IMG/VR virus record: IMGVR_UViG_2909251562_000002 | Direction: 5' to 3' (one strand) | Length of the DNA: 28,381 nucleotides | From: a virus | Taxonomy: Duplodnaviria; Heunggongvirae; Uroviricota; Caudoviricetes | Shown here: in pieces, positions 21,348 through 21,923 of the stretch | How positions within the stretch are numbered: the first letter of the stretch is position 1 | Layout of the letters: each line of letters opens with the position of its first letter | Notes under the pieces: generated by a model | Database searches by the model: none | What the model was told of the DNA's origin: nothing | The model's input: only the letters and a program-made list of their open reading frames with translations | Program-made: the position numbers and the translations under genes

Positions 21348-21923
21348 ATGGATTTCGACACAATCATGGAAAAGGCTTACGAAGAATACTTCGAAGGCCT
21401 TGCCGAAGGCGAAGAAGCTCTCAGCTTCAGTGAGTTTAAACAGGCACTCAGAATAAGAATGTGCTCTCACAATGACGCGGAGCACAAATATGAGAAGCAA
21501 AATCAGACCGCAGAAAATTTTGTTCTGGAACCCGGAGAAACGCTTTTCAAAATTCCCGTTACGTGCCCCATTTGCGGTTTTACATCAGAAGAACTTGACG
21601 ACTCCTGTAACAATCAGGAAACAACCAAGTATGTCGAAGATGATACCGAGTGCGCACGAAGAACGATTATATCCACGAGTCCAAACTCCAGGACCAATAA
21701 ATCTCACTATGAGAGGGTGATTAATCCACTCCCCCAAACCAATAAAAAAGATGCCGGAGGACAAAAAACCCAATGGAACAACGGGATATCTGTCAAAAAA
21801 AGACGTTCCATTAAAGACAAACAACGCAGCGCCAACAACTGTAAGCGCTTTATACCAGTAATCAATTTTCATGTTCTTAAGCGGATTTATTGGTGGTTGC
21901 GACATTGCTTAATGAATCCTTAA
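21348..21923 (+). CDS. Continuous 191-codon ORF across the ydfB/ydfC-equivalent region; N-terminal part protein-like with a CPICG...C motif, C-terminal part low-complexity
   Basis: Start overlaps-adjacent to the ydfA stop; an antisense ORF (21585-21872) with membrane-protein character overlaps the 3' half, so the true extent is uncertain. Confidence 0.4.
   Translation: MDFDTIMEKAYEEYFEGLAEGEEALSFSEFKQALRIRMCSHNDAEHKYEKQNQTAENFVLEPGETLFKIPVTCPICGFTSEELDDSCNNQETTKYVEDDTECARRTIISTSPNSRTNKSHYERVINPLPQTNKKDAGGQKTQWNNGISVKKRRSIKDKQRSANNCKRFIPVINFHVLKRIYWWLRHCLMNP

Follow-up and report, generated by a model that had tools for sequence, protein, structure and literature searches.

Analysis of a 28,381-nucleotide stretch of prophage DNA (Caudoviricetes; IMG/VR record IMGVR_UViG_2909251562_000002), the whole of which we call the window, suggests that both strands are read between positions 21348 and 21923. 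The minus strand carries a gene for a small membrane protein, here named M, and the plus strand carries an open reading frame (ORF), X, which belongs to the strand of the early operon and covers the whole of M. We consider it likely that M is a real membrane protein gene lying head-on in an early operon repressed by DicA and that X is translated and free of stops across M; we propose, more tentatively, that M is a moron opposite which translation of X would shield the early transcript from Rho. Its surrounding genes mark the prophage as Qin-like and lambdoid.

The minus-strand gene M

M is almost certainly a real gene. A search with the M protein recovered 60 relatives. Full-length homologs with 29-58% identity are found across Proteobacteria, in Yersinia, Herminiimonas and Reinekea, and in many metagenomes; the set of ~100-110 amino acids (aa) that includes Yersinia enterocolitica lies at 34-58%. 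A profile search of 1.84 billion representatives (E ≤ 1e-3) returned 482 clusters at 50% identity, nearly all of them stand-alone proteins of ~100-115 aa. Members of the family are ~100-111 aa long. A short N-terminal stretch leads into Y-W-Y-K-A, the second transmembrane helix (TM2) closes with G-x-G-E-W-x-N-H-P, and TM3 has conserved Gly residues. The window protein belongs to the family by these features: it has the motifs in the forms DYWYKA and GLGEWINHP, and every invariant column of the family is present in it (Y16, W17, Y18, K19, A20, G56, G58, E59, W60, N62, H63, P64, G87 and G94).

Substitution patterns point the same way. Pairwise Nei-Gojobori ratios of non-synonymous to synonymous substitution rates (dN/dS) in the M frame are 0.07-0.19 for all pairs. 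Synonymous sites are saturated (dS 1.8 to infinity) between the Escherichia coli group (the window, L009, L010 and L216), the L011 lineage (L011-L014), Yersinia (L003-L005) and L145, and the M proteins of phage mEp390 and of L020 are only ~40% identical. Scans of viral contigs with the family alignment and with P0013 were dominated by near-identical E. coli copies; the diversity of lineages came from a DNA-motif scan, a scan with the L145 M protein (which gave L244) and a search for contigs encoding homologs.

An AlphaFold2 (AF2) model of M from a 27-sequence alignment, with a predicted local distance difference test score (pLDDT) of 82.7, predicts helices at residues 17-32, 42-62 and 85-105 and a beta-hairpin between TM2 and TM3 (E65-71/E74-79). 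No Pfam, NCBIfam, PHROG or PADLOC model matched M, and fold searches of PDB and BFVD were not informative, giving best E values of 0.5 and 0.01 with TM-scores below 0.5. A literature search with two RefSeq protein accessions and a PHROG identifier found no paper. The M family is so far undescribed and unnamed.

At window position 21709 (M codon 66), in the loop directly past GEWINHPL, the window has Ile (ATA), against Lys in the majority of E. coli copies and Arg or Gln elsewhere in the family's lineages. The Ile is shared by a minority of genomes and is possibly non-neutral. Arcobacter sp. Pygsuia-1 (NZ_CP182343.1; L025-L027) holds three identical copies of an M-family gene at three chromosomal sites, which suggests carriage on a repeated mobile element.

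Existing annotations disagree about the region. RefSeq treats it in three incompatible ways: as a ydfB pseudogene only (most genomes, with nothing annotated from there up to dicB), as the 191-aa plus-strand ORF (WP_000344958.1, a hypothetical protein, in some genomes) or as the 106-aa minus-strand ORF (WP_122990131.1, in a minority). The family phrog_35040 is the same plus-strand call and the sole match to X in the Pfam, NCBIfam, PHROGs and PADLOC libraries. In phages mEp390 (gene 039; L121 2456-2911) and HannyBb (CDS0038; L122 2483-3100) the operon-strand ORF is annotated and the membrane gene opposite it is not.

The original prediction, made from the letters of the window, had described an uninterrupted 191-codon frame beginning beside the ydfA stop, and we find that frame at 21348-21923. 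It had also likened the 3' half of this frame to the antisense of a hydrophobic gene, and that half is indeed the mirror image of M. A minus-strand ORF had been placed at 21585-21872, encoding a transmembrane-rich protein of 95 aa; the membrane protein stands and its start does not. The inner ATG at 21872 gives 95 aa and the ATG that opens the ORF, at 21905, gives 106 aa, and the latter is the better call because homologs keep the upstream residues M-x-Q-P-x-x-N-P-L-K-N-M. The prediction had left the coding strand of the 3' half as an ambiguity. Homologs, dN/dS and the AF2 model (pLDDT 83) settle the minus strand as coding; what probably falls is the either/or choice, for the plus strand is probably translated too.

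The plus-strand frame X across gene M

X and M are codon-aligned, with plus codon position 1 paired to minus codon position 3, which leaves TTA, CTA and TCA codons of M as the sole source of stops in the plus frame. The window M has none of these codons. An ORF listing gives 21306-21923, or 205 aa from an upstream ATG; the ydfB ATG at 21348, one base past the ydfA stop, gives 191 codons. The natural length of X is ~150-155 aa, and in the window its frame is joined in frame to residues 1-34 of YdfB. In four lineages (L010, P0066, P0068 and P0072) X, with the N-terminus MGIQKQ..., starts from the ribosome-binding site and ATG (AAGGGGAAATGAGGTCAnnATG) that Qin ydfA uses, which makes it the leading ORF of the early operon there. 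In one E. coli lineage (L216, L230 and protein P0068) a single open frame of 279-280 codons starts with X, continues across the antisense of M and a linker, and enters full ydfC in frame, and the cassette that carries X and M can therefore coexist with ydfC.

Upstream of the overlap, the plus frame is probably translated. The 17 codons directly 5' of the M stop (21534-21584), aligned over seven lineages, hold the pattern G-E-x-(L/I)-x-x-I-P-x-x-C-P-(I/V)-C-G-F. Its seven invariant residues (I, P, C, P, C, G and F) are each written with 2-4 synonymous codons: 3 for Ile, 4 for Pro, 2 for Cys, 3 for Gly and 2 for Phe. Pairwise differences fall on the three codon positions as 54:49:100, an excess at the third. 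In the non-overlapping part of X, compared among five lineages, the ratio of the proportions of non-synonymous and synonymous differences (pN/pS) is 0.44-0.74, with pS of 0.5-0.9, near saturation. These ~45 non-overlapping codons of X appear to be under purifying selection, and no stop separates the conserved peptide from the M overlap. RNA structure, considered as a cause of the conserved stretch 3' of M, found no support, with a fold z of -0.55 against shuffles and substitutions that are codon-periodic instead. In mEp390 and L020 the N-terminus is unrelated and lacks the Cys motif (ERL..PGSV..D.E....L.GW.LE.F), and codon-position counts are too divergent to inform. The architecture is the same: ~32 codons precede the antisense of M, and a stop follows shortly past the M start.

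Within the overlap, where ~110 codons of X are the antisense of M, openness alone seems to be conserved, and not the amino acids of X; only M appears constrained at the protein level. Close pairs have an X-frame dN/dS of 1.1-1.7 there, and distant pairs one of 0.5-0.9. Six deep lineages (the E. coli group, L011, Yersinia, L244, mEp390 and L020) have no antisense stop at all. Their GC content is 0.40-0.48, and other A-ending codons are used normally. From local codon usage, 2.3-4.8 antisense stops are expected per gene, and the probability of none is 0.018 for the window and 0.005, 0.008, 0.0013, 0.03 and 0.06 for the others. The empirical background is higher, with 16 of 149 segments of 106 codons, taken from long ORFs at the same loci, open in this frame (0.11). 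The window by itself is unremarkable, since the probability of no antisense stop is ~0.02 from codon usage and ~0.08-0.11 empirically from neighbouring long ORFs, and openness becomes significant only when the other lineages are added. With the window taken as the hypothesis, at least five of six further lineages open (five are, and L145 is closed) has P ~9e-5 at the 0.11 background.

Elsewhere the frame is mostly closed. AT-rich homologs outside phages have 3-17 stops in the codon-aligned antisense frame, although openness is also seen in a few copies there, most of them rich in GC. In L145, X ends 9 nucleotides into M and the antisense frame has eight stops. A neighbour-joining tree nests L145 within the open clade, and pS in M is as high against the closed L145 as among the open lineages. 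Taken together, these comparisons make it quite probable that selection in active prophages keeps the plus frame open, and a shadow ORF is probably too little to describe it.

X gave no alignment to the zinc-binding protein YdaE of Rac, and its 117-aa form found nothing among PDB sequences. That form is represented by one 90% cluster only in 5.8 billion proteins, and X is therefore not a broad family. The AF2 model of the 191-aa product, from a shallow alignment, leaves residues 39-172 unstructured (pLDDT 45) and predicts a helix at 174-188.

A proposed mechanism and its alternatives

DicA represses the promoter dicBp, and expression of the operon yields a single polycistronic RNA that is processed (PMC10448788). 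In our proposal, DicA would hold the early promoter off in a lysogen, and M, as an inner-membrane protein of 106 aa, would be made as a moron from an extended -10 promoter of its own. Upon derepression, early transcription would cross M in antisense and silence it, by collision or through double-stranded RNA. Ribosomes on X would then shield the antisense RNA from Rho/NusG termination, with dicF, dicB and the exonuclease gene still expressed. Untranslated transcripts, antisense RNAs in particular, are terminated by Rho/NusG (PMC11551753), and overlapping antisense units switch off prophage defence genes in the Tha/Ith system (PMC11087260) and in Fc02 olg1/gene 10 (PMC9936078); the antisense unit sas likewise switches off P22 sieB (PMC12197685). 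The paper on dicBF regulation has nothing on Rho or on ydfB/ydfC.

The shielding step is tentative, and we regard it as a reasonable candidate rather than as probable. Shielding would account for the conservation of openness alone, for the end of X just past the M start or, in L216, its in-frame run into ydfC, and for the closed state of AT-rich copies outside phage operons. The plus-strand RNA across M is A-rich with more C than G, including windows with C/G of 1.5-2.2. A broader version of the idea, which we find doubtful, is that lambdoid prophages keep a 'bridge ORF' such as X open across head-on morons, with selection acting on continuous translation and not on the protein; it would shield the early transcript from Rho/NusG, so that a phage could silence the moron and yet express the early genes beyond it without an N-type antiterminator.

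Candidate regulatory elements of M are listed in Table 1. The extended -10 sequence TGGTATCCT is kept in all seven aligned cassette sequences, Yersinia included, and a promoter at this site is proposed from conservation only: a promoter and terminator scan gave nothing convincing for M, with TGGTATCCT below the promoter threshold. Just upstream of the M start, a ~30-nucleotide segment, TTTAAGGATACCACCTCGCCTGACGTGG (within 21925-21970), is kept in every cassette lineage including Yersinia, and its surroundings vary. We read TTTAAGGATACCACCTCGCCTGACGTGG as the extended -10 promoter of M; an operator or a recombination joint would fit it just as well. The hairpin of the candidate terminator is present in both minimum-free-energy and centroid folds, and the region (z = -0.55) folds no better than shuffles.

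Several observations weigh against this account. The promoter and terminator proposed for M come from sequence patterns, and a role for M is suggested by position and neighbours only, with no PADLOC, Pfam or fold match. Rho shielding does not explain the conserved N-terminal CPxCGF peptide, which may have a function of its own, for instance acting on the convergent membrane protein. The L145 prophage lineage manages without the X extension, and the disordered model of the 191-aa product fits the notion that only openness matters and fits equally a product that is not a functional protein. E. coli population data are also unfavourable to X. Among 38 E. coli haplotypes, single-nucleotide polymorphisms (SNPs) in the overlap comprise 18 that are synonymous in M and non-synonymous in X, 11 of the reverse kind and 10 that are non-synonymous in both. 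This preference for M-synonymous sites supports M as a real gene; when the same polymorphisms were tested for constraint on X in the overlap, none was found. Three independent nonsense alleles hit X only (21534, 21653 and 21747) against one that hits M only (21658), and frameshifts in runs of A (~21744-21749 and ~21765-21770) break both. L009 carries a GGA>TGA nonsense change within the conserved motif, and Yersinia L003 a frameshift upstream of it. X may thus be drifting or decaying in cryptic Qin-type elements, with M still under purifying selection. In the ydfB part of the frame (21348-21446), E. coli SNPs number seven synonymous and three non-synonymous. The A-run frameshifts are recurrent among E. 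coli copies, for example in L208, L136, L197, L222, L237 and L200.

Those population data, namely the X-only nonsense alleles and the lack of X constraint, are also what one would expect if the minus strand alone coded in the overlap, the plus frame from ~21585 being a chance shadow ORF that ribosomes enter passively or the ydfB remnant being a dead pseudogene. Among antisense frames, chance leaves the codon-aligned one open most often (the 16 of 149 segments above), dN/dS of the X frame is ~1 in the overlap, the AF2 product model is disordered, and the Prokaryotic Genome Annotation Pipeline (PGAP) usually annotates only a ydfB pseudogene. We nevertheless judge a pure shadow ORF improbable. 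Six deep lineages lack TTA, CTA and TCA yet use other A-ending codons, which is unlikely even at a background of 0.11; an upstream start region always accompanies the frame, as does a conserved, codon-periodic peptide that reaches the overlap uninterrupted by any stop; and where the frame is unconstrained, as in the AT-rich non-phage homologs and L145, it accumulates 3-17 stops. The converse, that the plus strand alone codes and the minus-strand membrane ORF is an artefact, is implied by most gene callers and by the HannyBb and mEp390 annotations, in which the plus ORF is an annotated coding sequence or has a counterpart. The 205-aa plus ORF is moreover the commonest public gene call, made in 1798 member sequences against ~280 for M. 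We give this explanation practically no credence: distant full-length M homologs with an antisense frame full of stops, together with the dN/dS of M (0.07-0.19, against ~1 in the plus frame), refute it, and the invariant motifs lie in the M frame.

X might instead act as a full-length functional protein, such as an inhibitor of M made on induction against self-exclusion, in the manner of Tha/Ith or SieB/Esc. The N-terminal motif is conserved, and X is always paired with a convergent membrane gene, either M or, in L228 and L145, one for a 156-aa transmembrane protein. Precedents include a prophage defence gene inhibited by the product of an antisense gene (PMC11087260) and overlapping partners that each have exclusion activity (PMC9936078). 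Even so, this seems an unlikely explanation, because no amino-acid constraint is seen in the overlap beyond what M imposes, the N-terminus of mEp390 and L020 is unrelated and without the Cys motif while the frame is open all the same, X of L145 ends right past the motif with the whole extension missing, and the 117-aa form is the single cluster noted above. On this unlikely reading the working parts would be the CPxCGF knuckle and a C-terminal amphipathic segment (FIPVINFHVLKRIYWWL), with a linker between them that tolerates changes in composition; in the model, helix 174-188 is the sole further predicted element. On balance, we favour a translated X kept open across a genuine M gene.

Setting of the cassette and comparison with related systems

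The window is identical to E. coli K-12 up to ~21446, unrelated to it until ~21970-22010, and then identical again through dicF and dicB (Table 1). This pattern appears to be a mosaic joint, with its left junction at ~21446/21447, at which a cassette of ~520-560 bp takes the place of the ydfB 3' end and all of ydfC. K-12 does have two short genes at the locus, ydfB (42 aa) and ydfC (72 aa), as the original prediction had it, and describing the window region as their equivalent does not hold, since ydfC and the ydfB 3' end are replaced by the foreign cassette and the ORF is a YdfB(1-34)-X fusion. The end of K-12 YdfB (b1572; SSSAKSNG, stop at codon 43) is missing, and the frame runs without a stop until 21921; an alignment to K-12, which the prediction had suggested for finding where stops differ, locates the divergence at 21447 and shows that stop to be lost. 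No sequence in the window can be aligned to ydfC (b1573, the 72-aa ORF between ydfB and dicF in K-12). A conserved stop after ~42 codons with both strands non-coding beyond it, the outcome that would have contradicted the prediction, is seen in no cassette-bearing genome. The cassette is carried by 805 of 5426 complete E. coli genomes (~15%) and by the isolated phage HannyBb.

Table 1. Features of the window in and around the M/X cassette
Feature	Position	Strand	Basis or remark
dicC (truncated)	20399-20533	-	gene neighbourhood of the window
dicA	20617-21024	+	gene neighbourhood of the window
ydfA (DUF1391)	21191-21346	+	Pfam PF07151, E 1.7e-28; PGAP in identical genome; identical to K-12
191-codon ORF, YdfB(1-34)-X fusion	21348-21923 (stop 21921-21923)	+	ORF listing
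ydfB codons 1 to ~33-34	21348-21446	+	K-12 alignment, identical
X-specific part without M overlap	21447-21584	+	homologous to X N-termini of other lineages (KQNQTAEN...PGETLFK)
Possible M intrinsic terminator	21450-21485	-	hairpin 21485-21461, then AUUCUUAUUCU; at cassette left edge; weak
Conserved peptide I-P-V-T-C-P-I-C-G-F (I-P-x-x-C-P-x-C-G-F)	21552-21581	+	synonymous codon changes, seven lineages
Gene M, 106 aa, three TM helices	21585-21905 (stop TGA 21585-21587)	-	homologs, invariant columns, dN/dS, AF2
Putative Shine-Dalgarno AAGGA of M	21917-21921	-	11 nt before ATG, read from sequence; X stop (21921-21923) overlaps
Putative M promoter	21940-21967	-	extended -10 TGGTATCCT at 21940-21948; 16-nt spacer; -35-like TTAACC at 21962-21967
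DicF small RNA	22184-22235	+	Rfam RF00039, 76.7 bits, E 2.3e-16; same early operon, downstream
dicB, then ydfD	dicB from 22411		neighbourhood of the window
Exonuclease, 823 aa, intact	22880-25351	+	neighbourhood of the window

The first gene of the dicB-type early operon in the window is ydfA. For 21348-21449, PGAP in an identical genome calls 'ydfB, incomplete, missing C-terminus'. The 823-aa exonuclease is intact in the window, whereas its K-12 counterpart is the ydfE pseudogene, broken by IS2E. On the other side of dicA, the dicC remnant (44 aa, against 76 aa in K-12) adjoins a truncated ydfV, both of them pseudogenes according to PGAP in the identical genome, and the K-12 Qin genes flxA, ydfW and ydfX are absent. 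Further upstream, the identical genome carries hokD, relBE, rem and an IS1414 transposase gene.

In all enterobacterial prophages examined (E. coli, Escherichia sp., Yersinia, L244 and P0013-type), M lies between a repressor of the CI/DicA/RacR type and the kil, exonuclease and integrase genes, on the opposite strand. The mEp390 and L020 copies lie head-on in the operon directly behind cro, and in Burkholderia phage Bcep176 it is the only gene that opposes all its neighbours. The contents of this position vary. In L145 (IMGVR_UViG_2541047080_000002, 1-6400) an island between a CI-like repressor and the early genes holds a DUF2971/PDC-S31 protein (341 aa), X (117 aa) with M, AbiH (PF14253, E 7e-57), a second, truncated copy of the X 3' end (5166-5396) and the 156-aa transmembrane protein (phrog_6315); in L228, X is followed by the 156-aa protein in place of M. 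The slot is therefore one at which oppositely oriented genes of an accessory or defence type are exchanged. PADLOC-DB 2.0 had no match for M, X or the 156-aa protein and matched only the 341-aa neighbour in L145, to PDC-S31. We infer an accessory or defence-type role for M, most likely superinfection exclusion or defence. The repeated X 3' end in L145 resembles a cassette boundary at which head-on accessory genes are swapped. A protein named from Edwardsiella ictaluri matches the X protein of L145 at 97% identity.

M has a positional analogue in sieB of the cryptic prophage Rac; lambda and P22 also have SieB. In Rac the order is racR, ydaG, ydaF (DUF1391), convergent sieB, kilS and kilR; sieB, like M, is a membrane protein gene that follows a DUF1391 gene of the ydaF/ydfA type, converges with repressor-proximal early genes, and sits upstream of a kil/dicB-type division inhibitor, head-on in the early-left operon near the repressor. 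P22 sieB is also under antisense RNA control (PMC12197685). Homology was considered and rejected: hhalign of the family alignment against Rac SieB gives a probability of 0.3%, and there is no Pfam SieB match. SieB has 162 aa, whereas M has 106 aa and three TM helices, and the operon-strand gene ydaF overlaps sieB in Rac by only 4 nucleotides, whereas the operon-strand ORF here spans all of M. M thus appears to be a positional analogue of sieB and not a member of the SieB family, and exclusion by M is putative.

Opposite-strand overlap beside a prophage repressor has functional precedents. In the Tha/Ith 'noncontiguous operon' of Staphylococcus aureus prophages, expression in lysogeny and on induction is mutually exclusive and the antisense architecture is functional (PMC11087260). 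There, however, the roles have a different polarity, with a small antisense gene inside the cI operon that overlaps only partially, and the proteins are unrelated; X and M are completely nested and codon-aligned over 106 codons, and a Tha/Ith-like inhibitor role for X is putative. In Pseudomonas phage Fc02, much as proposed here, a small gene expressed in the lysogen and adjacent to the repressor is overlapped on the other strand by a gene of the early lytic operon, and selection to retain the overlap has been raised (PMC9936078). Fc02 is Mu-like with unrelated sequences, and its expression and exclusion have been measured, whereas X and M are known from sequence. With M opposite a DicA-repressed operon and X within it, the arrangement would fit the two-unit layout, lysogenic and lytic, of such antisense pairs. 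K-12 ydfB resembles the window frame in its first 34 codons, its start and its coupling to ydfA, and differs in that the YdfB C-terminus, the stop at codon 43 and all of ydfC are absent from the window. In composition and dN/dS the X overlap looks like a membrane gene read in mirror image, as ordinary shadow ORFs do; unlike them, X is stop-free in recurrent fashion, far above background, and is joined to a conserved translated 5' segment. We place the architecture with the few described functional antisense pairs beside prophage repressors, from which it would differ by complete codon-aligned nesting and by selection on openness only.

Our analysis indicates that a conserved membrane protein is usually missed at this locus and that automated callers mostly pick the wrong strand. 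M is a candidate exclusion or defence gene of an uncharacterised family, in the classic slot by the repressor and, in L145, beside AbiH. If the bridge-ORF idea is true, it would be a new, sequence-detectable way to transcribe through opposed insertions and a new reason for the conservation of long antisense ORFs. The locus separates a frame that is kept open from a protein that is conserved, and it links antisense ORFs, Rho polarity and moron switching in a form that can be tested.

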